Source: Pseudidiomarina andamanensis
GTDB lineage: Bacteria > Pseudomonadota > Gammaproteobacteria > Enterobacterales > Alteromonadaceae
DNA: 32,000 nt
Reading direction: 5' to 3'
NCBI RefSeq assembly: GCF_009734345.1
Contig: NZ_CP032551.1
Location: forward strand, 1,980,001 to 2,012,000
Shown here: positions 1,627 to 25,365 of the stretch, piece by piece
Layout: every line of letters begins with the position of its first letter
Numbering within the stretch: position 1 is the first letter of the stretch
Made by a program: the position numbers and the translations under genes
Notes under the pieces: generated by a model
What the model was told of the DNA's origin: nothing
The model's input: only the letters and a program-made list of their open reading frames with translations
Databases searched by the model: none

Positions 1627-1735
1627 AATTGCAATAACGGAAGTTTAAAATTGGCAGAATGCAGGTTTTTATATGATGTGGCTCCACCATAATGGCTTCT
1701 ATCTAGCCGGATGCCGTGCCTATGTGCGTTTGGCA

Positions 1736-1783
1736 TTGGATTTTTTACTTATAACTGCTCCGAATTTTCGGGGGGATTACAAA
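1736..1783 (+). repeat. Partial copy (3' 48 nt) of the ~165-bp repeat module (copy A)
   Basis: TTGGATTTTTTACTTATAACTGCTCCGAATTTTCGGGGGGATTACAAA is near-identical to 5980-6027. The core TGCTyCGAwTyTTmGGGGGATTACA is shared with 12541-12566. Confidence 0.85.
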
Positions 1784-1787
1784 TGGA

Positions 1788-1859
1788 ATGAATGAAGCTT
1801 ATAAAAGGCAGGTAAAGTTGCTACTCGATGTGTTGCCGGAAATCGCGAAAGAGGACTAA
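1788..1859 (+). pseudogene. N-terminal remnant (23 codons) of an AbiEii/AbiGii-type nucleotidyltransferase toxin gene
   Basis: The ORF reads MNEAYKRQVKLLLDVLPEIAKED then stop. This matches the usual start of one AbiEii subfamily (Y..QV.LLL.VLP.IA.E followed by FALKGGTA), but it stops before the GGTA motif. The family assignment is from memory. Confidence 0.45.
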
Positions 1860-1886
1860 TTGATCAGGTTTTATTCATAAAAATAC

Positions 1887-1962
1887 ATTTATGATGTCTA
1901 CTTCATTTTTGTGTATTTATGTACTACACTTCATCTGTGCTTATTTATGAACCTAACTACAT
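1887..1962 (+). promoter_or_regulatory. Three 20-nt direct repeats at exact 28-bp spacing upstream of hipB (putative operator or promoter iterons)
   Basis: ATTTATGATGTCTACTTCAT (1887), ATTTATGTACTACACTTCAT (1915) and ATTTATGAACCTAACTACAT (1943). The shared pattern is ATTTATG-N6-AC-TwCAT. The last repeat ends 16 nt before the hipB ATG. Confidence 0.35.
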
Positions 1963-1977
1963 CGATGAGGTTTACTC

Positions 1978-2220
1978 ATGATCATCCAGCGCCCAGCCGA
2001 CTTGGCGGTACTCATTAAATCGCAGAGAAAAGCGCAAGGCTACACACAAAAAGAGCTGGCTAAGTTAACTGGGCTTTCGCAAAGAAGCGTGTCGTCCATT
2101 GAACGTACCGGAGAAATGCACACATCGACTTTGCTGAGAATTTTTGCAGCGCTCAGAATTCAGCTAAACGCAGATGCGGTGAAACAAAATACCTCAAGTA
2201 ACAGCGAGGTTATTTGGTAA
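1978..2220 (+). CDS. hipB: HipB-like XRE-family HTH antitoxin
   Basis: 80 aa with the HTH GYTQKELAKLTGLSQRSVSSIERTG. GAGG lies 7 nt upstream of the ATG. Its stop overlaps the hipA start (TAATG). Confidence 0.8.
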   Translation: MIIQRPADLAVLIKSQRKAQGYTQKELAKLTGLSQRSVSSIERTGEMHTSTLLRIFAALRIQLNADAVKQNTSSNSEVIW

Positions 2221-3524
2221 TGGGCCGACGCAAACATGAGAACACACTCTATTGCCACATGAATGATCAGTTCGTTGGCACGCTGACATCGCGGCTGAAT
2301 AATTTGAGCTTTCGATATTCAGATAGTTGGCTACAATCCAAGTTTGCACGGGCAATCTCCATATCCATGCCATTAACTGAACAGGAATATTCCGGCGAAG
2401 CGCTAAACGCTTATTTTGATAACCTATTGCCGGACAGTCCGGATGTTCGTAAAACGATTGTGGATAGGCTTGGGGCTAAAAGTACAAAACCTTTTGATTT
2501 GCTCGAAACGGTCGGCAAAGACTGTATTGGTGCATTAACCTTCGTTGCCAGTTCGGAGCCCCAGCCGGTTCCAGACGTTGAAATAATCCCGTTGAATGAA
2601 GAACAAATCGGCCAACTCGTAGCAGATTCGCGAACCGGCAAAACTCTCGGTATGCACTATGAAGATGCATTTCGTTTTTCACTTGCCGGCGCTCAAGAAA
2701 AAACGGCGCTGACTTTTTGGCAAGGCCAATGGGGTATCCCTGTAGGCCGAACACCAACCACGCACATATTGAAACCGCGGATCATAACTCGCCCAGGTGA
2801 ACCTGATTTATCGAGCAGCGTTGAAAACGAATGGTTTTGTATGCGTGTTGTTCAGGCACTTGGATTGTCGGTAGCCCATACAAGAATTGACAGCTTCAAC
2901 GGTGAAGATGTTTTGATTATTGAGCGCTTTGACAGAAAAGACATTGGGAACAAGATTTATCGACTACCGCAAGAAGATTTCTGCCAAGCGCTTGGTGTGG
3001 CAGGTAGTTCAAAATATGAGGAGCATGGTGGGCCAAGCGCTAAAGAGATCATGAATATTTTATCCACATCTACGGCTTCGGTTCGTGATCAGGATACGTT
3101 TATGTCAGCGCAGCTACTGTATTGGCTTTTCGCCGCTATAGACGGGCATGCAAAGAACTTCAGTTTGGCACTGACTCCCCATGGATACCGACTGACGCCG
3201 TTATATGACGTGTTATCAGCACATGGATTTGCACAAGTAGGCAATTTACATCCTAAGAAAATAAAAATGGCGATGGCCGTGAATAGTAAGAATCGACATT
3301 ATCATTGGCATACAATTCTTCCTCGGCACTGGGGAGCTCACGCAAAGAGTGTTGGCTATGATCCAGATCGCATGGATTCGATAATTGTGAACATCACATC
3401 CAAGTTAGAAGCGTGTCTCGATATTGCATCAGAAGAAGCTGCCTCGATAAGTGTTCGCGCAGAGCAAAGCGCGGAAGCTATTCGCAAAGGTACATTGAAA
3501 GCGCTTGAACGTTTTAAGGTATGA
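2220..3524 (+). CDS. hipA: HipA-family serine/threonine kinase toxin (type II TA)
   Basis: Carries FSLAGAQEKT (P-loop-like, Ser at the autophosphorylation-type position) and the catalytic motif IDGHAKNFS. Length is about 434 aa. I prefer the ATG at 2220, overlapping the hipB TAA, over the track's TTG at 2214. Confidence 0.9.
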   Translation: MGRRKHENTLYCHMNDQFVGTLTSRLNNLSFRYSDSWLQSKFARAISISMPLTEQEYSGEALNAYFDNLLPDSPDVRKTIVDRLGAKSTKPFDLLETVGKDCIGALTFVASSEPQPVPDVEIIPLNEEQIGQLVADSRTGKTLGMHYEDAFRFSLAGAQEKTALTFWQGQWGIPVGRTPTTHILKPRIITRPGEPDLSSSVENEWFCMRVVQALGLSVAHTRIDSFNGEDVLIIERFDRKDIGNKIYRLPQEDFCQALGVAGSSKYEEHGGPSAKEIMNILSTSTASVRDQDTFMSAQLLYWLFAAIDGHAKNFSLALTPHGYRLTPLYDVLSAHGFAQVGNLHPKKIKMAMAVNSKNRHYHWHTILPRHWGAHAKSVGYDPDRMDSIIVNITSKLEACLDIASEEAASISVRAEQSAEAIRKGTLKALERFKV

Positions 3525-3661
3525 GCTTTCTAGTAAATCAGTCGCGATTCAGTATTTTGAGCTTGAGGTCACAAATTTAGACCAACTGAGATAACTTCAA
3601 GTGGTTTGGTCCCATAGAATATTTAGTTGGTAAGTACTATTCTTCTACGAACCATTAAAAA

Positions 3662-3770
3662 TGGCACACCCGACAGGAGTCGAACCTGTGACCTCTATCT
3701 CCGAAAGCAAATCACGGGTTCGGTAGTAAATCGATAAAGCTATATTGAGCAGGGGATTAAGCGGTGTTTT
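3662..3770 (+). repeat. Diverged copy of the tRNA-Arg 3' half (3662-3709) plus a conserved island-end flank (3710-3770)
   Basis: TGGCACACCCGACAGGAGTCGAACCTGTGACCTCTATCTCCGAAAGCA differs from 26922-26970 at six positions, including a 1-nt gap. The flank is about 80% identical (48/60 by hand) to 10249-10308. Confidence 0.85.
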
Positions 3771-3910
3771 GGTTCTCAAGCTAAACATCCGTATGGAACT
3801 TAAACGCTAATAAAGCATTCCGCACCATTAATGGTTACGGGGTAACGCGTTATAAACGTGAGCCATATTATTTCAGGAAAATAAAAAAGGAATTTAAGGA
3901 GCCCTTGGCA

Positions 3911-4600
3911 ATGCGTCATAAGTTAATTTTATTGGCAGGTTTGTCAGCATTGTACTTTATCGCTGGCTGTGCTGTACCAATAGTCTACTTAAACGATTAT
4001 GAGCTTGAAGAAAGCAACTTTGAAAAGGTAAAAAACGCATTAGAAGAGAAGGGCTTTAAGGTAAATCGAGTGTCGTTAAAACCGCCTAGTAACATCCATG
4101 AATCTACAATCATAACCGGTTCGAAAGCGACCGTTGAACAGAACTATAATCAGATTATGCCGATTCTTGCAAGCTTAGGGTATTCAAACACGGATATTAC
4201 ATTCGTTGAGTCGGGAAATCACTGGTACCGTGGTGATAACATAGGTGTATACCTTTTTGATGATGGGGTTGGTGAAAAGCCCGAGAGGGAAATTATTGGT
4301 GAATACTCAAGCGATAATTGTGAATCGATGAAATCACTAATATTAAAAGCGGATGGCAATTTTAATGTTGCTTATACTTTTGGTGGTGAACTGTCCGGCG
4401 AATGGCAGATCATCTCGATGCCCTATGTGAATCTTTGGAATAAACGTACGGGTTTAAATTTTTACTATCAGATAGAGATAGAAGAGCAATCAGATTTCTC
4501 AGGTAAAGTAGATGTCATTACTTTAGTACCTCTTGATGATCAATCTCAGATTCGAGATTGTATATTTTACAAAGGTATTAGAAAGGGTAAAGCAATATGA
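3911..4600 (+). CDS. Lipoprotein of unknown function
   Basis: Signal peptide with lipobox (LYFIAGC). AAGGAG lies 9 nt upstream of the ATG at 3911, while the track's TTG at 3905 is too close to the SD. I recognise no family. The stop codon directly abuts the next tRNA-like repeat. Confidence 0.75.
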   Translation: MRHKLILLAGLSALYFIAGCAVPIVYLNDYELEESNFEKVKNALEEKGFKVNRVSLKPPSNIHESTIITGSKATVEQNYNQIMPILASLGYSNTDITFVESGNHWYRGDNIGVYLFDDGVGEKPEREIIGEYSSDNCESMKSLILKADGNFNVAYTFGGELSGEWQIISMPYVNLWNKRTGLNFYYQIEIEEQSDFSGKVDVITLVPLDDQSQIRDCIFYKGIRKGKAI

Positions 4601-4740
4601 TTCTCTCCCACAGGAATCGAGCCCGTGACCTCTGCTATCGTGATAGAGCATTTGTCAGGCATGATTAAAATCTCAGTTTAGAGGTAGAAAAAATGCCATC
4701 TAAGAAATCGTTCAACTACCGCTGGGGATTAAGCTGATGT
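4601..4740 (+). repeat. Strongly diverged tRNA-3'-half-like repeat (4601-4650) plus a gapped copy of the island-end flank
   Basis: TCTCCCACAGGAATCGAGCCCGTGACCTCTGC aligns with CACCCGACAGGAGTCGAACCTGTGACCTCTGC. Downstream, AAATCGTT and GGGGATTAAGC match the flank motifs of the other two copies. The flank overlaps the fic stop codon. Confidence 0.6.
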
Positions 4741-5811
4741 CATGAGTTTCATCAGGCGAGGATTCACAAATAGCTTTTCTTTACCTGAAGTTGTCTCTTC
4801 TAATATGCCAATTTCAACGAGCTGTTTAAGGTAAACAGAAGCGGTTTGACGCTTGGCGATATCGCGTTCCACTAAATTACTAATTCGACAATAAGGCTGC
4901 TCAAAAATCACTTGAACAAGCTCATAGCTGTATATTTTCGGTAATTGCTCGCGAATCCTGTTTGTAGTCTGCTCCATTAACGCTCGAATAGCGGCGATCT
5001 TCTCACAAGTCCAAAGCGACGTTTGCTCAACACCACGCAACATGAATACCAGCCAGTCTTCCCAGTTTTGTTTCTGAGTTACTTGATTCAGTAATCGGTA
5101 GTAATCTTGCTTGTGCGCAACAATGTAACGGCTAAGGTACAATATCGGCAGTGTTAAAAGCTTTTGCTCAATCAAATAGAGGACATTTAGGATTCTGCCA
5201 GTACGCCCATTGCCATCATAGAAGGGATGAATTGCTTCAAATTGATAGTGGCTCACCGCCATTTTTATCAGCGGATCGATAGTATCGGTGCCATGCAGAA
5301 ACTGCTCCCAATTACTGAGTAAATCGCGAATGACCTGTTCGCCGACCGGTGGTGTATAAACCACTTCATTTGTTGTTTGATTACCAATAATGGTGCCAGG
5401 TAGCTTCCGTAATTCCATCGCCGTATTCTTCAATGTACTACACACTTCAATGGCTGTTGTCGTACATAGAGGTTTGCGCTCTAACTGCGTGAAGCCTTGA
5501 TAGAGTGCTGTGCGATAACGAAGTGCTTCTTTGGTTGCTTGATCAGCACCGCTGTCTTGTTGTGCATATCGAAATAGTTGATCTGTTGTGGTGACGATAT
5601 TTTCAATTCTAGAACTGTCTTTTGCCTCTAAAAGAGGAAGCAAATTGATGAGCATACTTTGATTAGGGAGTAACGCACCAGCTTGTTTCAACTCGGCAAG
5701 CGCAGCGCGAGCAGAGATGCATGCCTTCAATACGTCGCGCGTCTCGATTTGCTCTAATTTCGGCGGTAACATAGGCAAATCGTTATAGGGTTGGTCAGCT
5801 TGCCAAGTCAT
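4729..5811 (-). CDS. Fic-family protein (AMPylase-type) with an N-terminal inhibitory-helix motif and a C-terminal wHTH-like tail
   Basis: Fic motif HPFYDGNGRTGR. (S/T)xxxE(G/N) inhibitory motif SSRIEN. The N-terminus MTWQADQPYNDLPMLPP is typical of this family. I prefer the ATG at 5811 (AGGA 8 nt upstream) over the track's GTG at 5838. Confidence 0.9.
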   Translation of the reverse strand: MTWQADQPYNDLPMLPPKLEQIETRDVLKACISARAALAELKQAGALLPNQSMLINLLPLLEAKDSSRIENIVTTTDQLFRYAQQDSGADQATKEALRYRTALYQGFTQLERKPLCTTTAIEVCSTLKNTAMELRKLPGTIIGNQTTNEVVYTPPVGEQVIRDLLSNWEQFLHGTDTIDPLIKMAVSHYQFEAIHPFYDGNGRTGRILNVLYLIEQKLLTLPILYLSRYIVAHKQDYYRLLNQVTQKQNWEDWLVFMLRGVEQTSLWTCEKIAAIRALMEQTTNRIREQLPKIYSYELVQVIFEQPYCRISNLVERDIAKRQTASVYLKQLVEIGILEETTSGKEKLFVNPRLMKLMTSA

Positions 5812-5855
5812 GTTTAAATTCCTTTGGAAATTCGACACATTATGATGTTGTTTGT

Positions 5856-5884
5856 AGTGTAGGTCGATTCCATCGACACGACAA
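5856..5884 (-). promoter_or_regulatory. Candidate sigma70 promoter for fic, embedded in TCGAC-type repeats
   Basis: The minus strand reads TTGTCG-N17-TACACT, with the -35 at 5879-5884 and the -10 at 5856-5861. The spacer contains ATCGAC/GTCGAT motifs. Confidence 0.3.
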
Positions 5885-6027
5885 GGTTATTTGTCGATTA
5901 TTTATTGTTTTATCGACATGAAGGTTTGTTGGGTGATTTAAAGGATGTTTGGGTTGTATCCGACGTCACTGAGGTGGAGTTGGATTTTCTACTTATTACT
6001 GCTCCGATTTTTCGGGGGGATTACAAA
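5863..6027 (+). repeat. ~165-bp repeat module, copy B
   Basis: Aligns over its whole length with 12406-12566, roughly two-thirds identity by eye. It contains ATCGACA, TGTCGAT and ATCGACA (7-bp inverted repeats) and ends in TGCTCCGATTTTTCGGGGGGATTACAAA. Confidence 0.85.
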
Positions 6028-6129
6028 ATAGCCAATAAAATTGATCCACCCAGGAAAACAAATTAGCGTTAATGTGTGCTATTCGTGACGCTGACAGTGG
6101 TTCTTAGTAAATTATTATCGCTGTTAAAT

Positions 6130-6264
6130 ATGACGGAAGCAGAAGTATCTCGAATTAAAGGTATTGGCGTGCAAACTTTATATAATTGGCTAGATAAAAC
6201 CAAATTACAGGGGAAAGGTCAGCCATCGCTTATCAGTGGCAATTGCTTGAACGTCAGTCAATGA
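6130..6264 (+). CDS. Short HTH-like ORF, possibly a remnant of an excisionase/AlpA-type or transposase OrfA-type N-terminus
   Basis: MTEAEVSRIKGIGVQTLYNWLDKTKLQGKG resembles the '...STLYNWLKK...' HTH of small DNA-binding proteins from mobile elements. The ORF is short and I see no clear SD. Confidence 0.25.
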   Translation: MTEAEVSRIKGIGVQTLYNWLDKTKLQGKGQPSLISGNCLNVSQ

Positions 6265-6425
6265 TGCTATTTCGGTGGTTCATGAGCGAGACGGAGATAC
6301 CTACACCACCGAATACCAATGCAATACAAATCAAGCATCTAGTACCTATTTTTGAATGACCCTGAATCACAGCGCAAATTGAAATACTCTCTTACCTTGG
6401 CCCTGCGGCACTTCTAAATGTGCAT

Positions 6426-7343
6426 TTAAAGGCGGTCGAGCAATTCATACAGTGCTTTGTCGTTCTCCTGACCAAGCTGCTGTGCAAGTTGGCGATGTGT
6501 TTCAACACCCGCTTCATTGTTGTCCAATTTCATGAGCTGAGCCATGCGAGCATGTGCCCAAGCAAGCTCTGGAAGTTCTAAGTCGTTGTCGAATGCAAGA
6601 ATGTATGCTTCCATACTTTGAATTCCATCTTGCACATCAATGCCGCTAAACACTGCATTTCTAGCCACTTGATAGCGAGCGTTTAGTTGTGCTGCACGAA
6701 TTTCTGGATGCTCCGAGAGCGCGCTGTCTGCCTGTAACATAGCGGCTTGTTTGAATAAGGTGTGAGCGCCTGCATAATCTCCCTCTGCTTGCTTTTGTAG
6801 CCCCAAACGAAGTTTGAGTCGGGGTTCATTCGGGTGTTTTGTCATGGCCTGGGTTAATGCAGCGGTATAATTGTTAGCGTCGAAAACGTTCACTACACGT
6901 AATTGCGCAAGTGTACCTTGAAGGTTGTCGATCGTTGCTATATCAGCGGCCTTGGCCCGAGCCTTGGTCTCGCCGCCGCCTACAATAGAAGGTGCATTCA
7001 AGTAGTAGTTCAGCGCGGCTAGTTGGTACTTCATATTAGTTGGCTCGAGGGCCACGGCTTTTTCAGTACACTTACGGCTTCTTGATGCATTGCGCATAGC
7101 GCTCAACATGCCTTCTCCCGCACGTAGGCCATAAATTACACCACAGTAATAATTCACCTGAGGGTTCTCAGGGTACTGCTCAAGAAGCCTTTCCATTAGG
7201 CGCTGCGCAGGGCCAAGTTCATTTGGCAAATGTGCTTCTATTTGCTGCAGCTGAGGCTCAAGAGCTTGGGAATTATGTTGGGCCCAAGTGTTTACAGTGG
7301 CAAATGAGCATGCAGCGACTGTGAGAATAAGTATGTGTTTCAT
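6426..7343 (-). CDS. Secreted TPR/Sel1-like repeat protein
   Basis: N-terminal signal peptide (MKHILILTVAACSFATVNTWAQ) followed by helical-repeat-like sequence. I recognise no catalytic motif. Confidence 0.6.
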   Translation of the reverse strand: MKHILILTVAACSFATVNTWAQHNSQALEPQLQQIEAHLPNELGPAQRLMERLLEQYPENPQVNYYCGVIYGLRAGEGMLSAMRNASRSRKCTEKAVALEPTNMKYQLAALNYYLNAPSIVGGGETKARAKAADIATIDNLQGTLAQLRVVNVFDANNYTAALTQAMTKHPNEPRLKLRLGLQKQAEGDYAGAHTLFKQAAMLQADSALSEHPEIRAAQLNARYQVARNAVFSGIDVQDGIQSMEAYILAFDNDLELPELAWAHARMAQLMKLDNNEAGVETHRQLAQQLGQENDKALYELLDRL

Positions 7344-7364
7344 AATCGGTCCTTATTTATGGCC

Positions 7365-8099
7365 TTAATTTAAAGCTTTGCGTGGCGGGTCATATTTCTT
7401 TGAGAGTTTGGCGATAAAGGATGATCCAATAACTCCAGGAGCGAACCAAAGGGCAGTTTGTACCCAGCCACTAGTGTGTAGTAACGAATTTCCACCAAAC
7501 ACAATGAAAGCGGTGTATGCACCAATTCCAGAGCCGAGATAAGCTCCCAAGTGTTCACGCAACCAAGCCGTTGGAGACACGCTTTTACGGTAGGTATAAA
7601 CCAAGTTAGACACACCAATCACCACTCCAAGTGCGCCGAATACAATGAGTAAAACGAGACTGTTAAAAATTCCAAAAGCGCTAAGTGCTAATCCATTGAT
7701 TGCAAGCGCTCCGTTGATGGCTAAAGGCAGAGGCTTTTTCAAGCCATTACGGTTGCGTTTGTGCTCCAGCACTTGATTACCGTGAAAAATGGCGCAGTGA
7801 ATCAACATGCCAAGATGAATAAGAAACCAAGCAAAAACATAAGTTTGTTGTAGGCGCACCTCGGTAAGGTGAGGAACCGCAGCAAGTTCAGGTTTAACGG
7901 CAGTATTGAATAACAACACCATTACGGAAGCAAAAATGCCAGTCAACGCAACCACGTGCATACTTGAGCCATAGATTTTGCCGAATTTTTTGTGATTTAA
8001 ACCGCCTTTACGAGAAAGTACAGGCACCCAAAATAGGCAGAGTGCGAGCGCTCCAGCCAGTACGTGAATTGCTACGGTAAGTTGATAGATGGTTAACAT
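7365..8099 (-). CDS. Multi-pass inner-membrane protein (DUF2306-like, tentative)
   Basis: About 6 hydrophobic helices. The segment IHVLAGALALCLFWVPVLSRKGGLNHKKFGKIY resembles the DUF2306 H...G...HR.xG.xY region. I prefer the ATG at 8099 (GGAGG 10 nt upstream). Alternatives are 8108 and 8201. Confidence 0.6.
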   Translation of the reverse strand: MLTIYQLTVAIHVLAGALALCLFWVPVLSRKGGLNHKKFGKIYGSSMHVVALTGIFASVMVLLFNTAVKPELAAVPHLTEVRLQQTYVFAWFLIHLGMLIHCAIFHGNQVLEHKRNRNGLKKPLPLAINGALAINGLALSAFGIFNSLVLLIVFGALGVVIGVSNLVYTYRKSVSPTAWLREHLGAYLGSGIGAYTAFIVFGGNSLLHTSGWVQTALWFAPGVIGSSFIAKLSKKYDPPRKALN

Positions 8100-8261
8100 A
8101 ATTGCCATTCCTCCGAGAACATAGGGGTAAAGAGCAGGCCTCTTAAACCTTGGAGGAAATTTTAGGTGGCTATGAAAATGTATGTTAGTGACAGAAGTCA
8201 CAACTTTAAAAATGACTTTTGGCCTATTGGTGATTTACGCAATTGCTTGCATACTCAGGCA

Positions 8262-9392
8262 ATGGAATTGAAAAACTTAAAACTAGATGCTGATCGACTA
8301 AGCGGTATTGGCACCGTGCTGGTAGTGGCCGCTTTCGACTTGTGGCTGTTACTCTCAACCACCAACGCAAGCACACCAAGGCTTACTTTGTTGGCGTTAC
8401 TTTATGCAACTTTTACGACTACATTTTTCATCAATACAAACGATGAAGTTCCGCTCTCAAGATGGCCCCGGCACCTAATAATTGGTGGTCAATTTGTAGT
8501 CATTTGTTCAATAATGTACACCACACCCAATATGTTTAGTGCCATTTTATTAGTGGTGTGGTCGGCGCAGCTCCCTTATTTTATGCCTTTTCGCTGGGCC
8601 CTTTGGCTCACGCCACTGTGGAGCTTTGTTGCGTGGAGTACGCACTTTCTGCGTTGGCAGCCCGACGGCATTGTAATTACTGGGGTGCTGTTCACTACGT
8701 TTAATGTGTTCGCGCTCATTATGATGGAGTCGAGGCGTAATGCAGAATTTCAAAAAGAGCGCGCAGAGCAAGCGAATCGAGAGCTTATTGCTATGCAGTC
8801 ACTTGTGAAAGAGGCGTCGCAGCAGGAAGAACGGCTGCGTATTGCCCGCGATATTCATGATCTTGTAGGCCATCATCTTACCGCGCTTACGGTGCAACTC
8901 CAGGTGCTGGCGCGTAAGGTACCTGAAGCTCTGAAAGTTGACGTAGAGCGTTCTCGTGCTATTTCGAAATTACTGCTCGCAGACGTGCGTGTTGCCGTAA
9001 GCGAAATGCGCGAACATGAACAACTGAATTTGCGCGAAGCACTTGAGGCTTTGGTCGAAAAATTACCGGGCATTGAGGTTTCATTGGCTTTCCCGAACAA
9101 AGTTGCGGTACTCAATTTAGAACAAGCGCTAGCAATATTGCGCGGTGTGCAGGAAAGCGTGACCAATAGCGTGCGACATGGCAAAGCCACCAAGGTAGGA
9201 ATTGAGGTGCAGCAATCTGAACGCGAACTTGTAGTGCGTGTTAAAGACAACGGGCAAAGCAGCAAACCGATCGAGTTTGGCAATGGCTTGAACGGCATGC
9301 GGGAGCGGCTAAAAAGCTTTAATGGCACTGTAACTGCTGAGCGCCAAGCGCGCGGCGTTTTGGTGTGTCTTAGAATACCGGTGGGTTTATGA
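8262..9392 (+). CDS. Membrane-embedded sensor histidine kinase (HisKA_3 / NarL-partner class)
   Basis: H-box ARDIHDLVGHHLT. N and G boxes TNSVRHGKA and DNGQS...GNGLNGMRERL. N-terminal polytopic domain without a large periplasmic loop. The start is uncertain between 8166 and 8262. Confidence 0.85.
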   Translation: MELKNLKLDADRLSGIGTVLVVAAFDLWLLLSTTNASTPRLTLLALLYATFTTTFFINTNDEVPLSRWPRHLIIGGQFVVICSIMYTTPNMFSAILLVVWSAQLPYFMPFRWALWLTPLWSFVAWSTHFLRWQPDGIVITGVLFTTFNVFALIMMESRRNAEFQKERAEQANRELIAMQSLVKEASQQEERLRIARDIHDLVGHHLTALTVQLQVLARKVPEALKVDVERSRAISKLLLADVRVAVSEMREHEQLNLREALEALVEKLPGIEVSLAFPNKVAVLNLEQALAILRGVQESVTNSVRHGKATKVGIEVQQSERELVVRVKDNGQSSKPIEFGNGLNGMRERLKSFNGTVTAERQARGVLVCLRIPVGL

Positions 9393-10069
9393 GCACTTTG
9401 CACTCACCCGAAAAGCACCGAGTTATGTTAGTCGATGACCAAAAATTAATTCGACAAGGCTTAGCGAGCTTATTGTCGCTTTCAGCCCATATTGAAGTAG
9501 CACATGAAGCAGCAGATGGCGAAGAGGCACTTGCGTGGATCAAAGCCCATGGCATCGACATTGACATAATCCTGCTCGACTTAAGAATGCCAAAAATGAA
9601 TGGTATTCAGCTTCTACAAGCCATGCGTGCAGAAAATATAAAAATTCCGGTTTTGATTCTGACCACCTTTGACGACCATAATATGCTTCTTGAAGCGTTG
9701 AAAGCAGGGGCGCGAGGGTACCTACTTAAAGACGTAGAACTCGAAATGCTAGTGAGTGGTATTGAGCGAATAGTCGCTGGCGAGTCAATGATTCAACCTA
9801 CCATTACCACCTCGCTTTTAAACGGATTACAAGGCTTACATTCCGAATTTGAGGCCTTTGCCGCGCCCGAGGCGCTTTCCGCTAAAGAGCTAGAAATATT
9901 ACGCCTTATTGCCGCCGGTTGTTCCAATAAAGAAATTGCCGACGCTCTTTTTAAGTCGGAAGGCACCGTTAAAAATCAAGTAAGCGCCATTATGGCGAAG
10001 CTTGGTGTGAGAGACCGGACGCGAGCAGTTTTAAGGGCTATTGAGTTGGGACTTATCGGGTTTTGTTAA
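9389..10069 (+). CDS. NarL/FixJ-family response regulator (REC + LuxR-type HTH)
   Basis: REC domain (VMLVDDQ...DIILLDLRMPKMNG) and a LuxR HTH (LSAKELEILRLIAAGCSNKEIADALFKSEGTVKNQVSAIMAKLGV). ATGA overlap with the kinase gene. Confidence 0.9.
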   Translation: MSTLHSPEKHRVMLVDDQKLIRQGLASLLSLSAHIEVAHEAADGEEALAWIKAHGIDIDIILLDLRMPKMNGIQLLQAMRAENIKIPVLILTTFDDHNMLLEALKAGARGYLLKDVELEMLVSGIERIVAGESMIQPTITTSLLNGLQGLHSEFEAFAAPEALSAKELEILRLIAAGCSNKEIADALFKSEGTVKNQVSAIMAKLGVRDRTRAVLRAIELGLIGFC

Positions 10070-10199
10070 CGCTAAGGGAACCTATAGCTGCTCTCTGTCG
10101 CTAACTAGCTCCTTAAAATAACAAGTTCTAATCTTAAGTACCTCAGTGGTGGCGGCTAATTAACGGTATTATCGGACAGACGGCTCTGAAATTCTTTGA

Positions 10200-10308
<109 letters not shown>

Positions 10309-10451
10309 AATTTTTTAATTGGTGTCGAAATTGGCACTTTTGAGGCCGTTTAATGACAAATTTGGTCACAGAAAACCGACTCCAAAATTTCAAATTTTGA
10401 CCTTTGCCTCGCGACAAGAAATTCTAAATCTCCGAAAAATCCTGAGTTTTT

Positions 10452-10474
10452 AGGTGGAAAAAATTCCACCTTTT
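10452..10474 (+). terminator. Hairpin followed by a T-run (intrinsic-terminator-like) with no upstream plus-strand gene
   Basis: AGGTGGAA-AAAA-TTCCACCT is a perfect 8-bp stem and is followed by TTT. The T-run is on the plus strand only, so it does not serve minus-strand abiEii. Confidence 0.3.
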
Positions 10475-10553
10475 AACCGGACTTTAGGTGTGTAGATTAG
10501 CCTATAATTTAATAATGCCAACAAACGAGATCGCTTTATTCCAAATATCGAAA

Positions 10554-11612
10554 TTAACGCCGTCCGTTCAAAAAGCTATTAATTAGATCTTGCTGCTCGG
10601 CTAAACGCTCAATGATGCCGGCAAAGCTATCGGGGGCACTAAAGAACATTCCACCGCTTACGGACTGGTCGTAATCTTTTTTGATATCTTCGAGCAGCCG
10701 CCCCGTTGGAATTAGCACCAACTTACCGGAAAGAATGGCTTCAAAGGAAACGCCTCGAGTAGCCCACCTTGCCGACTTCATCGCTACCACGTCTTGCAGT
10801 GCTTCCATGTTTTGGTATGAGCCTTCATAGAGATTTTTCAGAATGCAGTCTACATCATACCAATGTCTGGACAACCGCACCGTATCAAGCGGGTTTTCTT
10901 GCGTGCAGAATTGATGAAGTGCGGTTAGCTTTTCCCAAATAATGTAATCCGGGTGGTAAGCCTCCACTGCAGCTATCGGTAACGTATGGGACTCTGCAAT
11001 CGCATCTATTTCTGACAGGTAAGTCGTTACGGGTTTAGAAACCGTCGGCCGGCCCCGGTTACGGCCGCCAAATTCGAGCAGTACATGCTCTAACTGATAA
11101 GAATCATCCTGGAATGCCACATGTGGAAAGTGAATGTCGATTTTCTCACCACCAGAGTCTTCTTCAATTTCAGCGCTGAGTCCCTCAATGCCATAATCTG
11201 AAAGTCTGCTATTCAATCTTTGAACAAACTCGTTGGTCCAGCCTTCTAAACGCTCTCTCTGCTCACGTCTAAATTTACGTTGCTGACTCGGATTCCGTGT
11301 TGTCTGCGTCCAAGCAGCAGCTTCATCATCTGATTCTGCTAAGTCAGCCCAATGAATCGATAAATCAATATCCTCAGAGAATCGCTCAATGGTGCTATAG
11401 CACTTGCTCAGGGCTGTTCCACCTTTGAAGGCCACATCATGGCTATCTAATAAATCCTCTTCGTATAGCAACCGCAAAATTTCGGTTACCCAAATATCTT
11501 TCTCTAAAAAATTAGCGGCCAAACCTCTTGCGGAGTTCTGCGCAGCATATTCGAGGATTAATTTTAGTTCCGCTCGTTTCGCTTCAGTTCTATAGTAATC
11601 AAATATGTCCAT
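10554..11612 (-). CDS. abiEii: AbiEii/AbiGii-family nucleotidyltransferase toxin (type IV TA / abortive infection)
   Basis: DVAFKGGTALSKCY...ERFSEDIDLSI is the nucleotidyltransferase signature of this family. The ATG at 11612 overlaps the abiEi TGA by 1 nt (TGATG). Confidence 0.85.
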   Translation of the reverse strand: MDIFDYYRTEAKRAELKLILEYAAQNSARGLAANFLEKDIWVTEILRLLYEEDLLDSHDVAFKGGTALSKCYSTIERFSEDIDLSIHWADLAESDDEAAAWTQTTRNPSQQRKFRREQRERLEGWTNEFVQRLNSRLSDYGIEGLSAEIEEDSGGEKIDIHFPHVAFQDDSYQLEHVLLEFGGRNRGRPTVSKPVTTYLSEIDAIAESHTLPIAAVEAYHPDYIIWEKLTALHQFCTQENPLDTVRLSRHWYDVDCILKNLYEGSYQNMEALQDVVAMKSARWATRGVSFEAILSGKLVLIPTGRLLEDIKKDYDQSVSGGMFFSAPDSFAGIIERLAEQQDLINSFLNGRR

Positions 11613-12232
11613 CACACTGACGCGCTCTCAACTTGCGCTAGCTTTTGGCGCCATTGCGAATTCAGCGTAGAATGCTTGAGGTTGCTGAGAACACGCTCCT
11701 TCTCACTTCCTGTCAACGATAATCGCTTAAATACCTTGCGTAACTGCTCGGGCTTGAAGTGTTCTGGCTCCATCACCGAAAGGCCTCGAAGAATCATACC
11801 TTCAGGTTGGTTCAGCCACTTAAGCTTACTCGATGCGACGTGCTTCACTTCAACAGTTGAATTCCCCACTTTAAATTCACGCGATGGGCCGTTCGTCCAA
11901 TAAATGGTTCGGGCAGGAGCCTGAGTTTGCAGTCCAATGCGATATGCCGCTTCAAAGCCATTCGAAACAAGTTTGTACCCGTAATTTCTCGCCCAAGCTT
12001 TTGCGACCTCTTCTGGGCTGGGCATTACCTTCGCCCCCGGTAAGTTTTCTATTGACTTAGGACGAACGTAAAAGCCTTTTGACACACGCACAATCTCGCC
12101 TGACTTCGCCAATCGGCTAAAAGCCTTCTGGACAGCACTTTCCGTGCCTAGCTCATAAAATCCCTCTATGGAAAAAGGAACACCTTTTCTCATGCGAGCA
12201 ATCCGAGACTCAATTTGTGCGGTGATAGACAT
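11612..12232 (-). CDS. abiEi: AbiEi-type (DUF6088-like) antitoxin / transcriptional regulator
   Basis: 206 aa, translationally coupled upstream of abiEii. The N-terminal region (RMRKGVPFSIEGFYELGTESAVQKAFSRLAKSGEIVRVSKGFYVRPK) looks like the wHTH of this family. Confidence 0.7.
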   Translation of the reverse strand: MSITAQIESRIARMRKGVPFSIEGFYELGTESAVQKAFSRLAKSGEIVRVSKGFYVRPKSIENLPGAKVMPSPEEVAKAWARNYGYKLVSNGFEAAYRIGLQTQAPARTIYWTNGPSREFKVGNSTVEVKHVASSKLKWLNQPEGMILRGLSVMEPEHFKPEQLRKVFKRLSLTGSEKERVLSNLKHSTLNSQWRQKLAQVESASV

Positions 12233-12405
12233 TGAGATAATCCTGACTATGAAATGCTGTGTTGATTAAATATACACCTTTAATTGCCCAATGTACATGG
12301 TCATTGATGTCAGGATTGTTTGATCCACCTAACCAATTATTTGGGTAAGGGTAAGACGGTGGCTGTAAATACTTCTAAAGACTCGAGATGCGTACTTTTA
12401 CCTAT

Positions 12406-12566
12406 GTCGAGTCTATCGACGCAACAGGATTGTTTGTCGATTATTTCGTGTTTTATCGACATGAAAGGCCGTTGGATGAAGTAAAAATATTTGGGTCATA
12501 TTCTGCATTTTTTCGCTATTATTCAACTTTCCCCCTAAAATTGCTTCGATTCTTAGGGGGATTACA
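12406..12566 (+). repeat. ~165-bp repeat module, copy C
   Basis: Co-linear with 5863-6027 and has the same ATCGAC / TGTCGAT / ATCGACA arrangement. It ends in TGCTTCGATTCTTAGGGGGATTACA. Track ORF 12388-12591 lies inside it. Confidence 0.85.
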
Positions 12567-12867
12567 GCGATCCCGAACTGGGAAAAGTTGAAACTCGGTT
12601 TATTTAGATAAAATATCAACTAAAGTTATGGTAAGGCCTGATTTTTCCCGACTCTTTTAAGGTCACAAGACACTCTACGAGTGGGCTGTATTATTTGATG
12701 GGATAGTTACACTGGAACGTTAATACTTGATGTCTTGAGAGGGAAAATGTAATCCTCAACTTAATTAGAAACTATCAAAGATAATCCACCTTACTGTGAA
12801 TGAGTGTCCTGAAACGAATGGACTCTTCACACAAATTCACGATTTAAATTAGAAAGTGTGGGACGAC

Positions 12868-14657
12868 ATGGCAAAATATGAAGTAAAGCAAACAGCGATC
12901 AGTCAAATTCTTGCTGACGTTCGTAGCGATAAAATAGCAATTCCGGAACTACAACGACCATTTGTTTGGAAAACATCTCAGGTCAGGGACTTAATTGACT
13001 CACTTTACAACGGTTATCCGGTTGGTTATCTGATAACGTGGCAATCTGTTGGCGCCAAATTAAAGGGGGGAGCTGTCGCAGCACATCAACAAATACTAAT
13101 CGATGGCCAACAACGAGTAACAGCGTTGAGGGCCGCAATTGCGGGACAAACGGTGATTGGTAACCGTTATGAAAAAAAGCGGATCGCTATTTCGTTTAAT
13201 CCTGTAACGGAAGAGTTTGCGACGAGAACGCCAGCGATTACCAATAGCTCCCAATGGATTCACGATATTAGTGAGTTTTTTCCGGTTCCAGTCAGCTGAG
13301 CTTTCTGAGAAATTATTTCGCTAAAAATCCAGATGTTGATCAAGACCAAGTTGAACAAGCCTCGGCGAGACTCGCCGCTGTTGAGCATGCGCAAGTAGGT
13401 GTCATTTCATTGGCAGACGATTTGGATGTAGAAACGGTTGCAGAGATCTTCGTTCGGATCAATGCCAAAGGTGTTCCGCTATCAAGTGCTGATTTTGTAA
13501 TGAGTAAAATTGCCACGTACGGCAATGAAGGGCGCAATCTTCGGAAGCTAATTGATTATTTCTGTCACCTGACGGTCTCTGGGCACGCATTTGATGATAT
13601 TAAAGAGAACGATGAAGAGTTCGCAAAATCGGAGCATATTAGGAAAATTCAGTGGTTAAGTAATCAAACGGACGAGTTATTTCAACCTGACTATACCGAT
13701 GTCATTCGTATTGCCGGTCTAGTTGGATTTAGTCGTGGTAAAGCCGGAGCAATTGTTAGTGAGCTATCCGGGCTTGACCCACAAACGAGAAAAATTGATG
13801 AAAATCTTATTCCAGCCGCGTATTCTCGTTTTGCGGAAGCATTAGATCTACTTGTGAGTAAGACGCATCTCGAGCGATTTGTAATGATGATCAAGTCTGC
13901 TGGGTATATCGATGCCAGCATGATTGGGTCAAAGAATGCATTGAATTTCGCATATGCACTTTACCTGCGCCTTCGGTTGGACGATCAGCTGAATGAGGGA
14001 GAGAGAGCAAGAATTGTAAAACGCTGGTTCGTTATGACATTACTGACCGGAAGAGCCGTGGGAAGCTTTGAATCCACGTGGGAAACTGACTTACGTCGTA
14101 TTAAGGACCACGGTGCGGAACAATACTTACGCACTCTTGAAGCCTCAGTTCTAAGTGATAGTTTTTGGGATGTAACTTTAGTTCAGGAGCTCGAGTCACC
14201 AAGCAAGCGTAGTCCTGCATTCCAAACATATTTAGCAGCAAGAGTTGCAAAAGGAGGGCGGGGATTCCTTTCAAAGTCGATTAATATCGCACAGATGATC
14301 GAGGGGCATGGCGATATGCACCACATAATTCCCAAGAATCACCTTATTCGTCATGGATTCCCGAAACAGGGAGATTACAACCAGATTGCAAACTTTGCGT
14401 TGACAGAAACAGCAATCAACATCGCGATTAAAGACCTACCACCGAAAGAATACATGTTAATGGTTCTTGAACAGATTGAATCCGGAAATTTAAGACTTGG
14501 CGAAATTTGTGATCGAGAAGATTTACAGAGAAATTTAGCCGAAAATGCTATTCCTGAGCTCATATTCAATACTACCGCAGAAAATTACAAAGAGTTCCTA
14601 GCGGGACGCCGTTTTTTAATGGCAACAATGATCAAAGAGTATTATGACAGCCTTTGA
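12868..14657 (+). pseudogene. DUF262-DUF1524 (GmrSD-like type IV restriction) nuclease gene, split by a frameshift in a T6 run at 13276-13281
   Basis: ORF1 carries IPELQRPFVW and DGQQR (13102-13116). ORF2 carries the rest of DUF262 (EIFVRINAKGVPLSSADF) and an HNH-like DUF1524 motif (GDMHHIIPKNHL...NQIANFALTETAINIAI). The ORF2 frame is open from 13275. One extra T in the run would fuse both into about 600 aa. Confidence 0.75.
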
Positions 14658-14758
14658 TCTTAAAGATGAGAAAACTTATACATAATTGTCTTCAATCTAT
14701 TTAAAACTCAATGGCGGCAAGGTGTCTAGCAAATCAGTGTCGATTCAGCTAGGTTATC

Positions 14759-16517
<1,759 letters not shown>

Positions 16518-16530
16518 CGTGTATTGCCTC

Positions 16531-16881
16531 CTAGTAAAAGAAAGGAACAACATAGGGGTAAGCCAATGCTGTTAAAGTAAGCACCGCAACGAGCCAAAAC
16601 ATCACTTTGTAGCTCTTACGAGCATTTGGCGTTGCGCAGGTGTTATCAGGGTTGCAGTCATCAGCACGCCGGTATATTCGACGCCAGGCAAAGAATATGG
16701 CAATCAATGCAATGGCAATAAAAATGGGTCGATAAGGCTCAAGTGCTGTGAGGCTCCCAATCCAGGCCCCGGATACACCGAGTGCAAGTAATATGAGGGG
16801 ACCCAGACAACACGCAGATGCCAGAGTCGCTGCGATCCCTCCCGCGAGAAGAGAGCCCCGACCAGATTTTGAATTTGACAT
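16531..16881 (-). CDS. merT: Mercury transporter MerT
   Basis: 116 aa from the ATG at 16881 (AAGGAG 8 nt upstream). It has the first-helix CC pair (ASACCLGP) and a second Cys pair (CNPDNTC). Confidence 0.9.
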   Translation of the reverse strand: MSNSKSGRGSLLAGGIAATLASACCLGPLILLALGVSGAWIGSLTALEPYRPIFIAIALIAIFFAWRRIYRRADDCNPDNTCATPNARKSYKVMFWLVAVLTLTALAYPYVVPFFY

Positions 16882-16919
16882 AAGAGTAACTCCTTCGGGC
16901 ATTTTGCTTTAATGTGTTA

Positions 16920-16950
16920 ATCTTAGACCCGTACCTCACTACGGAAGCAA
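16920..16950 (-). promoter_or_regulatory. MerR-type operator/promoter (PmerT) with a 19-bp spacer
   Basis: The minus strand reads TTGCTT-CCGTAGTGAGGTACGGGTC-TAAGAT. The spacer is 19 bp and contains the dyad CCGTA-N6-TACGG, as in classical mer operators. Confidence 0.75.
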
Positions 16951-16955
16951 TAGCT

Positions 16956-17399
16956 ATGTTAAAAAAACGCAACGTAATGACAATTGGCACGCTGGCCAAA
17001 ACAGCCGGCGTGGGCGTGGAAACGGTGCGCTATTATCAGCGCCGAGGGCTAATGAGCGAGCCGGAGAAGCCGTATGGGGGGATCCGACATTACGACGAAC
17101 AAGCGCTTGCTCGGCTTCATTTTATTCGCGCGTCTCAATGGCTCGGATTTAGTCTGGATGAAATTGGTGAGCTATTAACTCTGCAAGATGGCGCTCATTG
17201 CGATGAAGCACGGGAGCTTGGAGAGCAAAAGCTCACCAGTGTTCGTCGAAAGATATCGCGCTTACAGCAAATTGAACGAGCGTTGAATGAGCTGGTGCAA
17301 AAATGCAGCTCCGGACACGGAGATGTCTATTGTCCATTGATGGCGTCGCTTAATGACGGGGTTGAGGACGCTACCACGGACAAACATAAGGTGCGTTAG
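16956..17399 (+). CDS. merR: Hg(II)-responsive transcriptional regulator MerR
   Basis: HTH MTIGTLAKTAGVGVETVRYYQRRGL. Three conserved Cys contexts: HCDEA, KCSS and YCPL. It is divergent from merTPA. The start is probably the ATG at 16956. Confidence 0.9.
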   Translation: MLKKRNVMTIGTLAKTAGVGVETVRYYQRRGLMSEPEKPYGGIRHYDEQALARLHFIRASQWLGFSLDEIGELLTLQDGAHCDEARELGEQKLTSVRRKISRLQQIERALNELVQKCSSGHGDVYCPLMASLNDGVEDATTDKHKVR

Positions 17400-17450
17400 T
17401 CTGTGTAGTAAAACTTTTGAGCGTAGTTCTTTAACTGAATTGCTTTATAG

Positions 17451-17786
17451 CTAACGCCAGCCATACACAAGAATCCCCATACCGGTTAGCACAAACGCCG
17501 CCCCAATCAAGTCGAAGCTGGATAAAGGCGATTTATCGACAATTCGCAGCCAGACTATGGCAGTTAACACGTAAATACCGCCGTAGGCTGCGTAAACGCG
17601 CCCGCTTTCCGCCGGATGAAGTGTTAATAAGTAAGCAAATAAGGCTAAGCTTATTGCTGCCGGAATGAGCAACCAAACGGAATGACCCTCTTTGAGCCAT
17701 AGGTAGGGTAAATAGCAACCGACAATTTCTGCAATTGCGGTTGCGATAAATAACCCGAGTGTCTTTATTAAAAATATTGAGCTCAT
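17451..17786 (-). CDS. ynfA: YnfA-family (UPF0060) small 4-TM membrane protein
   Basis: 111 aa. [18 protein letters not shown]...[12 protein letters not shown] matches the YnfA family pattern as I remember it. Confidence 0.8.
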
Positions 17787-17801
17787 TACGAATCCTGGTG
17801 A

Positions 17802-18437
17802 TTACCCGCAACACCCAGAAATATCGTCTTTTTCACCTGTCTTTACAGCTATCGCGTCTTTGATGATGCGAATAGCAGAGTGCAGTACAATGATGGCTAT
17901 GACAGTTGCGATGAGTAAGTCAGGCCATGCCGCATGGAGCTGGGCGACGAGCATCGCAGAGACAATAACACCGACATTCATGATCATGTCATTGCGTGAA
18001 CAAATCCAGCTGGCGCGAATGTTAATATCGCCGTTTCGGGAGCGATATAGAAGGGCAAAGCAAACGATGTTTACCAGTAATGCAAGCCCCGCTATTGAGA
18101 GCATGACAAAGGTTTCGGGCTGACTACCAAATGCCAGTTTAAGGATGACATCCAATAACACCGCCAGAGCTAATAATGTTTGCAGTATGCCGTTTAAAAT
18201 AGCGGCATTGACTTTATATTTAATGGCTTTGCCAACAGCGTATAAGCTCACAGCATAAACCAAAGTATCGGCAAGCATATCCAGCGAATCAGCAATAAGA
18301 CCACTGGATTCAGCCATCCAACCCGCAATGAACTCAACAAAGAACATGACGCCATTAAGGACTAGAACCGTCCATAACAACCTGCGTTGAGAGTTATCCA
18401 TTTCGGCTTGCGCTGAACTTCCGCAACATGATGACAT
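17802..18437 (-). CDS. Short cation-diffusion-facilitator (CDF) transporter, membrane domain only, with Cys pairs at both termini
   Basis: CDF TM motifs (ADSLDMLADTLVY, ICSRNDMIMNVGV). At 211 aa it has no cytoplasmic C-terminal domain. The N-terminus is MSSCCGSS and the C-terminus is DISGCCG. Confidence 0.8.
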   Translation of the reverse strand: MSSCCGSSAQAEMDNSQRRLLWTVLVLNGVMFFVEFIAGWMAESSGLIADSLDMLADTLVYAVSLYAVGKAIKYKVNAAILNGILQTLLALAVLLDVILKLAFGSQPETFVMLSIAGLALLVNIVCFALLYRSRNGDINIRASWICSRNDMIMNVGVIVSAMLVAQLHAAWPDLLIATVIAIIVLHSAIRIIKDAIAVKTGEKDDISGCCG

Positions 18438-18736
18438 TGGAACAACCTAAAACGATTTCGATATACCTACAGTTTATCACACGTTAACACGAGTTTCAGC
18501 GCTGGTTTTATGGTGGATTATTAGATAAAGTGGCCGTTACGAAAATATATTGGTTGCTCATATTGGTCTTATTAACACACAGCTTTTTTACCTCTGCATC
18601 TGCTTCTTTCCATATTTAAGACTCGGGTCACCAAAGTGTCGATGTTGTGTTTGGAGAATATGATATCGAGCATCAATTTCATGCGCACATCTGGTGTATT
18701 ACTGGCTCGTCTTGAACAAAAATAATGCACTCATTA

Positions 18737-19624: not shown

Positions 19625-19683
19625 AATACGTTCCTCTTTGTAGTAGAAGGGGCGGCAATAACCGCCCCCTTAAGTGCTGAACC

Positions 19684-22881: not shown

Positions 22882-22892
22882 ACAACCTCCTG

Positions 22893-24038: not shown

Positions 24039-24041
24039 CGT

Positions 24042-25292: not shown

Positions 25293-25365
25293 AGATAGAC
25301 TCCTCAGTCATATTACTGCGTAAAATAATGATTTTTTTGCGCTGCTATAGCAGCTTATTAGGCAG

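Follow-up and report, generated by a model that had tools for sequence, protein, structure and literature searches.

Cis-mobilizable elements (CIMEs) and their tandem accretion at transfer RNA (tRNA) genes have been described by Pavlovic (2004) and Bellanger (2011) and reviewed (PMC5704250), and related arrays are formed by the tycheposons of Prochlorococcus (bioRxiv 10.1101/2020.12.28.424599). Here we analysed a stretch of 32,000 nt from the chromosome of Pseudidiomarina andamanensis (contig NZ_CP032551.1, positions 1,980,001 to 2,012,000 of the forward strand; hereafter the window), in which positions 3661-26998 are a tandem array of integrase-less genomic islands at the 3' end of a tRNA-Arg(CCG) gene. 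The original prediction on this DNA held that two of the units follow one plan, namely a tRNA-derived repeat with a conserved flank, a toxin-type gene and a short non-coding module, suggested that flank and module are the two fixed cis elements of a cassette family, and knew of no description of such an organisation. The organisation is not new, since integrase-less, att-bearing units in tandem at a tRNA gene are what is known as CIMEs and their accretion. Comparison with related loci (given L numbers below) suggests that the conserved backbone of the two units is due to the shared descent of two island ends and the replacement of one defence gene, not to a two-element cassette system.

Results

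The island array at tRNA-Arg(CCG)

The tRNA-Arg(CCG) gene was the only tRNA called by ARAGORN in the window, and the units of the array are bounded by direct repeats of its 3' end, starting at 3661, 4601 (degenerate), 10199 and 26921 (coordinates of all features are collected in Table 1). The units 4601-10198 and 10199-26920 are referred to here as the SoFic island and the abiE island after the genes next to their distal ends. As predicted, the abiE island opens with repeat and flank, its core being a perfect copy of the tRNA end; this copy continues into the flank, repeat similarity reaches 10308, and the 110-nt repeats at 3661 and 10199 are 83% identical (E 9e-26, self-BLAST). The same opening had been assigned to the segment starting at 4601, where the repeat is indeed present (26 of 29 nt matching) but is degenerate, and all that follows it of the flank is what remains of the distal hairpin; the prediction had not named the copy at 3661, which is better preserved.

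Relatives show the units to be independent of one another. The abiE island of L004 is followed directly by hipBA, and the 6.5 kb between both 110-nt repeats (3771-10308) is missing, so that this stretch represents either an insertion or a deletion. L003, L005 and L002 have different DNA distal to the same abiE island, and a czc-like island adjoins the tRNA in L019 and lies one rank further out in L027 and L028.

Two further observations concern the cores. L031 and L026 have the response-regulator end of the SoFic island fused to the next flank by a deletion of ~140 nt (L031 oriented -34 to +10; window 10087-10235), with most of the core gone and a CTCTG microhomology at the junction, which is direct evidence of att-site decay. 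A degenerate partial tRNA-Arg (…CCGACCTTTACCTCCGGAGGGTA) lies ~45 nt upstream of the full tRNA-Arg gene in L019 (7300-7385) and L033 (4618-4690), followed by the flank in L033, and may reflect another tRNA-Arg target that stood in tandem with the first.

Pfam searches of open reading frames (ORFs) of at least 80 amino acids found no integrase or recombinase domain in the window or ~10 kb further left (L021), in agreement with the prediction that the units are integrase-less, and no transfer genes inside the units. The four units that could be followed from end to end (three in the window, of 0.94, 5.6 and 16.7 kb, and one in L025, an efflux island of 5.7 kb) have no integrase, the 16.7-kb abiE-GmrSD-mer-czc island (10199-26920) has no mobility genes, no integrase pseudogene or conjugation remnant was found in the units, and tblastn with a P4-type integrase gave nothing in the window or related loci. 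P4-type elements use the same core elsewhere. A second 48-nt core of L025 is followed by 171 nt, a P4-type integrase (Arm-DNA-bind_3, Phage_int_M, Phage_integrase) and then a rolling-circle Rep, and close homologues in L038 (Pseudidiomarina sp. 1APP75-32.1) and L039 (Idiomarina piscisalsi) share its layout, in which the core is followed by an arm with GTGGGACTAA twice, an integrase and AlpA, with Rep as well in L039. Since these elements use the 48-nt core, the end of tRNA-Arg serves tyrosine integrases in this family as an att site.

The flank and the proximal arms

A scan of metagenomes with a 25-base flank pattern yielded 13 loci, and together with genome loci ~17 sequences were aligned. 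The core of 48-50 nt and a further ~230 nt align in all of these with 85-90% conservation, the alignment stops at the hairpin AGGTGGAAAAAATTCCACC, and to either side of the aligned stretch the loci have nothing in common, which bears out repeat plus flank as a conserved cis element. Conservation is organised in four blocks with variable spacers between them. A structured RNA was considered and rejected, because the alignment contains no covariation: RNAalifold found compensatory changes in 0 of 50 predicted pairs and returned a covariation term of -0.03. Rfam gave no match for the flank either. The conserved blocks, the variable spacers and the lack of covariation argue for protein-binding DNA rather than RNA, and the flank would suit an attP-type arm with protein-binding-type blocks, an RNA being unlikely. 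The flank was absent from plasmids, in which only the tRNA core matched, and neither flank nor module patterns had a match in viral contigs.

Three classes can be told apart among the sequences that lie left of the cores. Class 1, aligned from the window and six other junctions (L025, L038, L008, L027, L019, L039), is a conserved sequence of ~70 nt that we interpret as the arm kept by the islands on their tRNA-proximal side. Class 2, found at the proximal end of the SoFic island, is common over its whole length to L035 and over only its last ~20 nt (GCTC(T/C)GAAA..TTG) to L025 and L036. Class 3 comprises hairpin terminators (L030, L032, L037), as expected of native sequence downstream of the tRNA. 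Both attL and attR are kept with conserved arms, the flank in ~17 loci and the proximal arm at 7 junctions.

The left part of the module

Pfam confirmed fic and abiEii-abiEi as minus-strand genes, and both module copies, B beside fic and C beside abiEii-abiEi, lie in plus orientation and divergent from these operons, as had been stated. The left 95 nt of B and C are 79% identical (E 2e-15). The layout of a module is an operator half, a spacer of ~40 nt and a solo end of ~45-50 nt from an insertion sequence (IS) of the IS3 family.

The fic gene encodes SoFic (PADLOC SoFic, 1.4e-125 over 347 of 360 amino acids) with the motif HPFYDGNGR (HPFxxGNGR type) at residue 195, and the left part of module B (5860-5924) lies inside its operator, still joined to SoFic. 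SoFic homologues were found in other settings in L040/L041 (88% identical), in P. salinarum (L042, 81%, between yicC and a GGDEF gene), in Rheinheimera (L043, beside a NERD gene) and in Shewanella algae (L044, inside a type I restriction locus). Five SoFic genes of three genera, namely Pseudidiomarina (three contexts), Rheinheimera and Shewanella, were compared upstream of their start codons (window 5812-5924; L040, L042 7875-8000; L043, L044 1375-1500). All follow one layout, TGTCGA(T)-N13-ATCGACA, ~12 nt, TGTCGAT-N3-ATCGACATA, the -10 region, a TGTCGAA half-site and the ribosome-binding site, with TGTCGA/TCGACA half-sites at -107/-106, -86/-85, -67/-66, -56/-55 and -26 from the ATG; a few individual half-sites deviate by one base. 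The window SoFic has TGTCGA-type sites at -26, -67, -86 and -107, and TCGACC instead of TCGACA at ~-56. With an nhmmer model built from the four module copies, the DNA upstream of the SoFic homologues was recovered (E 4e-10 to 9e-9).

The left part of module C contains the palindromes GTCGA-N5-TCGAC and TGTCGAT-N13-ATCGACA and adjoins abiE rather than SoFic; in C, L011 and L019 the operator homology stops at ...TCGACATA, where abiE's own 168-nt intergenic DNA takes over. The left ~65-75 nt of the module are thus the distal half of the SoFic promoter/operator and not a new cassette signal. SoFic, a dimer (PMC12249575), might itself bind the TGTCGA palindromes via its C-terminal winged-helix domain, and the occurrence of the operator in three gammaproteobacterial genera suggests that transcription of the toxic SoFic is under the control of SoFic itself or of a partner. 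Downstream of the window SoFic, no gene for an AS1-type antitoxin was identified.

Several other identities of the module were examined and rejected. A decayed 3' end of IS3 orfB had been considered for the left part on account of an 'FYRHERP' frame resembling 'YNNERP' at the same distance from the tip; Pfam gave nothing at E up to 10, BLASTP gave no alignment, Smith-Waterman scores against shuffles were not consistently significant, and this idea was dropped as the SoFic-operator match explains the region. A small protein gene is contradicted by an in-frame stop in copy B and by frames that differ between copies, and the Rep origin of the integrase-bearing elements by the absence of the palindrome from L025, L038 and L039. 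An AbiEi operator was discarded because inverted repeats separate from the module flank the promoter of abiE, and an RNA because the module had no Rfam match at gathering score or at E up to 1; fold z-scores were -1.1 to -1.6, and single-stranded DNA folds were no better than shuffles.

The right part of the module

Searching plasmids with module B matched its last ~45 nt alone, and this right part is 86-88% identical to the ends of complete IS3-family copies in Klebsiella IncC and Glaciecola plasmids. The Klebsiella and Glaciecola copies are complete elements with orfA and orfB (rve), the module-type sequence is their terminal inverted repeat, and the Klebsiella IncC copy carries TGTAATCCCCCC at both ends. 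Similarity ceases exactly at the ...ATTACA tip, ending ...CA. The same IS family occurs in P. aquimaris (L017), where a copy ends 2.5 kb from the module. The window has no orfA/orfB similarity, no second, inverted copy of the IS repeat was found in it, and there is no complete IS. By this likeness, the right part of the module is a lone terminal inverted repeat that stems from an insertion sequence of the IS3 family.

The homology of B, C/L019 and L011 also ends precisely at this tip (...GATTACA), with three different sequences beyond it; in the window these are two-component genes in one island and GmrSD/mer/czc genes in the other, and the earlier statement that unrelated cargo begins after the module holds. 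We infer that the cargo boundary at the IS tip was set by an IS-associated rearrangement. The solo IS end also stands after the toxin gene, in the same orientation, in L035/L031 and L038. A simple 'random scar' does not account for this recurrence close to the flank in a single orientation.

IS3-family elements or solo ends abut or interrupt toxin genes at fic of L035 (oriented 1098-1636) and abiEii of L002 (11497-12324), and an IS3-family end lies at a truncated AbiEii-like ORF in L038 (9155-9202). Such toxin genes of the island ends are either recurrent targets of IS elements or survivors. A third module copy (A), which consists of the IS end alone, lies between a TonB-dependent receptor gene and hipBA, 195 nt upstream of the hipB-hipA toxin-antitoxin pair and just outside the most distal tRNA repeat (stretch 1731-3524). 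L003 has neither hipBA nor the TonB-dependent receptor gene, so the copy A stretch is variable as well; exact-protein look-ups with HipA and with P0121 gave no match. A motif (TAAAA)TTGATCCAC(C) is present at 6040-6055, a short way to the right of module B, at 12320-12329 in the abiE intergenic DNA and where the 990-nt contig L011 ends, and may be the terminus of another repeated element.

The gene slot beside the flank

The abiE pair of the window was recognised by PADLOC (AbiEii 2.5e-179, AbiEi 3.6e-57). Across the loci, the genes beside the flank are SoFic, AbiE with AbiEi_4, AbiE with AbiEi_3 and yhfG-fic, the AbiEi_3/AbiEii pairs occurring in either orientation (L030, L037), and L025 has no toxin gene there. 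The prediction of an exchangeable toxin or defence gene is borne out, and the position next to the flank is a slot of defence or toxin genes replaced several times, with at least four systems. A remnant of an earlier occupant lies between the flank and the abiEii stop; its yhfG part was recognised by alignment with L008, L030 and L025 and with the intact FicTA pair of L035. The order of replacement was presumably yhfG-fic, then SoFic, then AbiE.

On the simplest reading of the junctions, an island end with the IS scar already in place exchanged its SoFic coding region and proximal promoter for abiEii-abiEi, in which case module C would be an orphan left behind by this replacement. Inverted repeats AATCCTGAC / GTCAGGATT at 12240-12248 and 12309-12317 bracket the predicted abiE promoter, are kept in L011 and are probably the AbiEi operator.

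Cargo and distribution of the islands

Exact-protein look-ups matched the window to contig JAMZRF010000002 of GCA_031624335.1. At 97.5-99.9% identity, the abiE-GmrSD-mer-czc island also occurs in P. homiensis, P. aquimaris, P. atlantica and P. fusca as well as in several metagenomes (window 10199-26920 against L002-L008 and L015-L017), and the chromosome beside it is 94% identical in L004 and not alignable in other species. This difference indicates that the island spread horizontally and recently. Its GmrSD-like nuclease gene (PADLOC HEC-05 type) is split in the window (12856-13299 and 13410-14657) and is probably a pseudogene in this genome, because L003 and L005-L008 have a single intact gene of 596 amino acids. 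A gene for a HindVP-type type II restriction endonuclease (25770-26732) adjoins the tRNA; no methyltransferase gene was recognisable near it, and the adjacent ORF of 114 amino acids (25366-25710) has no family match.

Table 1. Features of the island array and its surroundings in the 32,000-nt window
Feature	Position	Strand	Description	Basis
Module copy A, IS3-family inverted repeat alone	1731-1783	plus	94% identical to B; no SoFic operator	
Most distal core copy	3661-3710		Core (86% identical) plus first 60 nt of flank, to 3770	
Degenerate core copy	4601-4650		With remnant of distal flank hairpin at ~4680-4703	
SoFic	4729-5811	minus	Fic-domain AMPylating anti-phage defence toxin	Pfam Fic_N, Fic, SoFic-like_C
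Full SoFic promoter/operator (putative)	5812-5924	minus	Predicted -35/-10 at 5867-5839	
Module copy B	5860-6027	plus		
Module B right part, solo IS3-family terminal inverted repeat	5980-6027	plus	Tip at 6027	
Debris right of module B	6028-6425		Non-coding, including remnant of a 44-amino-acid helix-turn-helix ORF (weak transposase-type helix-turn-helix matches)	
SoFic-island cargo	6426-10069		Tetratricopeptide repeat protein, hypothetical protein, histidine kinase, LuxR-type response regulator	Pfam
Class 2 proximal arm of SoFic island	10160-10198		…GGTATTATCGGACAGACGGCTCTGAAATTCTTTG, ending ...GCTCTGAAATTCTTTG	
Core copy 2	10199-10248		50 nt, 100% identical to tRNA 3' end; distal boundary of abiE-mer-czc island	
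Flank, conserved, putative attP-type arm	10249-10471		Four conserved blocks; ends in hairpin AGGTGGAAAAAATTCCACCT (10452-10471)	
Earlier-occupant remnant	10480-10552	plus	Promoter-like TATAAT (10503-10508) and 5' part of yhfG-type antitoxin gene, cut at abiEii stop	
abiEii-abiEi	10554-12232	minus	Abortive-infection / type IV toxin-antitoxin pair	Pfam AbiEii, DUF6088/AbiEi_4
Module copy C	12403-12566	plus		
Module C left part, putative orphan distal half of SoFic promoter/operator	12403-12467	minus		Homology to upstream of five SoFic genes
Module C right part, solo diverged IS3-family terminal inverted repeat	12520-12566	plus	Tip ...GGGGGATTACA at 12566	
abiE-island (island 2) cargo	12856-26732		GmrSD-like nuclease, merRTPA, ynfA, two cation diffusion facilitator transporters, czcCBA, HindVP-type restriction endonuclease	Pfam, PADLOC
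Class 1 proximal (P') arm (putative) of abiE-mer-czc island	26850-26920		Two TTGGCACA-type direct repeats (26856-26880) and GTTAGT motif (GTTAGTG)	Alignment, motif scan
Recombination core, tRNA 3' 49-50 nt	26921-26970		Repeat family D2	
tRNA-Arg(CCG), integration target	26922-26998	minus		ARAGORN; Rfam tRNA 67.8 bits

Discussion

We explain the locus by repeated integration, by replacement of defence genes and by a module composed of a SoFic operator and an IS scar, an account to which we give a probability of roughly 80%. Repeated site-specific integration into the 3' end of tRNA-Arg(CCG) would have built the array, each island keeping, far from the tRNA, a copy of the tRNA end of 48-50 nt and an arm of ~230 nt, and the abiE-mer-czc island at least probably keeping a conserved ~70-nt tRNA-side arm with TTGGCACA repeats as well. 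The islands would behave like CIME-type or trans-dependent units, their integrase either having been lost later or being provided in trans or, from a neighbouring element, in cis. The operator of the 4601-10198 unit is still attached to SoFic; in the 10199-26920 unit, abiEii-abiEi would have taken the place of the SoFic coding region and proximal promoter, and the distal operator and IS scar would have stayed.

Several points weigh against this account. None of the loci retrieved contains a cognate integrase of the flank, and the arm with GTGGGACTAA repeats of the integrase-bearing elements differs from it. Island 2 has neither an integrase remnant nor a detectable SoFic coding remnant, so that integrase loss and gene replacement are deduced solely from the junctions. 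At each of four different island ends (B, C, L035/L031 and L038) a solo IS end points the same way and lies 0.8-2.4 kb from the flank. The paper on SoFic (PMC12249575) mentions neither a five-site TGTCGA operator nor a promoter nor palindrome binding.

How the islands came to be shared among species admits two further readings. One, which we consider doubtful though worth keeping in view, is that they are inert fossils, each having lost its own integrase and spreading by homologous recombination of flanking DNA. This very route has been described for CIMEs (PMC5704250), and decay is seen in the degenerate core at 4601, in the microhomology deletion of a core in L031/L026 and in the split GmrSD gene. 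Against it, four complete integrase-less units keep the flank to the same end point, the class 1 proximal arm is kept as well in at least two units (the abiE-mer-czc island and the L025 efflux island), and no integrase pseudogene was seen; simple homologous replacement is also argued against by the chromosomal DNA flanking the island, which is unalignable between species. The other, equally tentative, is that the flank-bearing units are non-autonomous integrative cassettes that an integrase encoded elsewhere inserts, excises and moves between Pseudidiomarina species, with an attP-type site of ~350 bp (proximal arm with TTGGCACA repeats, tRNA-Arg core and 230-nt flank), a defence gene as stabiliser, free cargo, and the recurrent, uniformly oriented solo IS3 end as a joint for cargo capture. 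If true, they would be a tRNA-site analogue of integron cassettes or of integrative mobile elements exploiting Xer recombination (IMEX).

An improbable alternative for module C is that the orphan SoFic operator has been co-opted, being bound by the SoFic encoded 6.5 kb away or by another regulator and tuning abiE or the rightward cargo (GmrSD). Four diverged copies share the 35-nt core TTTGTCGATTATTT-NN-TGTTTTATCGACATGAA without any variation, the palindrome overlaps with a promoter-like site that points rightward, and from the window to L019 conservation is 96% in the module as against 82.5% in the adjacent intergenic DNA. In L011, however, conservation of the module does not exceed that of the intergenic DNA beside it (78% against 79%), the promoter of abiE is surrounded by inverted repeats that belong to abiE itself (AATCCTGAC at 12240, 12309), and many genomes have the abiE island without the SoFic island (L003, L004).

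The two-element model of the original prediction, in which flank and module are functional cis elements of integrase-less cassettes bracketing an exchangeable addiction or abortive-infection gene, is very improbable in our view. What it had right is that the two elements are conserved around genes that differ, that the conservation of the flank is genuine and that toxin and defence genes turn over beside it. The module, however, does not serve as a second fixed element: its left part, matching the SoFic promoter/operator, travels with SoFic in non-island contexts, and its right part matches a solo IS3-family end. The distance is not fixed, the repeat-to-module spacing being 1259 nt in one unit and 2204 nt in the other, and the two elements do not keep company, the flank occurring without the module in L025, L027, L033, L035, L031 and L037 and the module without the flank in L019. 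Because flank and module occur independently, the model is largely refuted. That the module is a dispersed miniature inverted-repeat transposable element or a repetitive extragenic palindromic-like repeat, as its transposon-type inverted repeat and sharp homology tip might suggest, can scarcely be credited, for it has no left inverted repeat and no target-site duplication, plasmid and phage collections held nothing but the IS end, a scan for the operator core with one genome per species gave ten stretches, of which six are in five Pseudidiomarina species and four resemble chance matches, and the neighbour, wherever visible, is abiEi, with window copy B beside SoFic.

The outcome is deflationary in that a two-element cassette system is not upheld. 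It does leave a well-delimited att arm that marks integrase-less islands with mercury and zinc/cadmium resistance and phage-defence genes. These islands are near-identical across several Pseudidiomarina species and offer a tractable case for how integrase-less islands spread, and the slot beside the att arm illustrates the turnover of defence genes at island ends.

Among the components of the array, the window fic is a full-length SoFic with the Fic motif, like the system described (PADLOC; PMC12249575). Like complete copies of the IS3 family (OrfA/OrfB, TG...CA ends), whose inverted repeats are matched by its last 45-50 nt, the module ends in ...CA, but it has one end, no second inverted repeat and no transposase gene. 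P4-type integrase islands (L025, L038, L039), with integrase, AlpA and Rep, use a 48-nt tRNA-Arg core as well, but have the arm with GTGGGACTAA repeats instead of the flank, and the window contains no such gene. Integron cassettes and IMEX are likewise integrase-less units with one recombination site each, stacked at a single locus; here, by contrast, there is no intI, attC structure or dif site, and the units carry multiple genes (1-17 kb) and are bounded by tRNA-derived cores. The tycheposon arrays of Prochlorococcus share the marine bacterial host, the successive integrations at one tRNA with partial tRNAs between them, and the older elements pushed outward and degenerate remnants, but tycheposons have their own tyrosine recombinase, whereas the flank-bearing units have none. 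The closest known kind of organisation is the tandem accretion of CIME-like islands: as in CIMEs, the units have no integration or transfer genes, keep their att sites and stand in tandem at the tRNA 3' end with copies of the tRNA end between them. CIMEs were defined in streptococci as decayed integrative and conjugative elements, whereas no integrase or conjugation remnant is seen here, and several unrelated cargo sets share one well-preserved arm.

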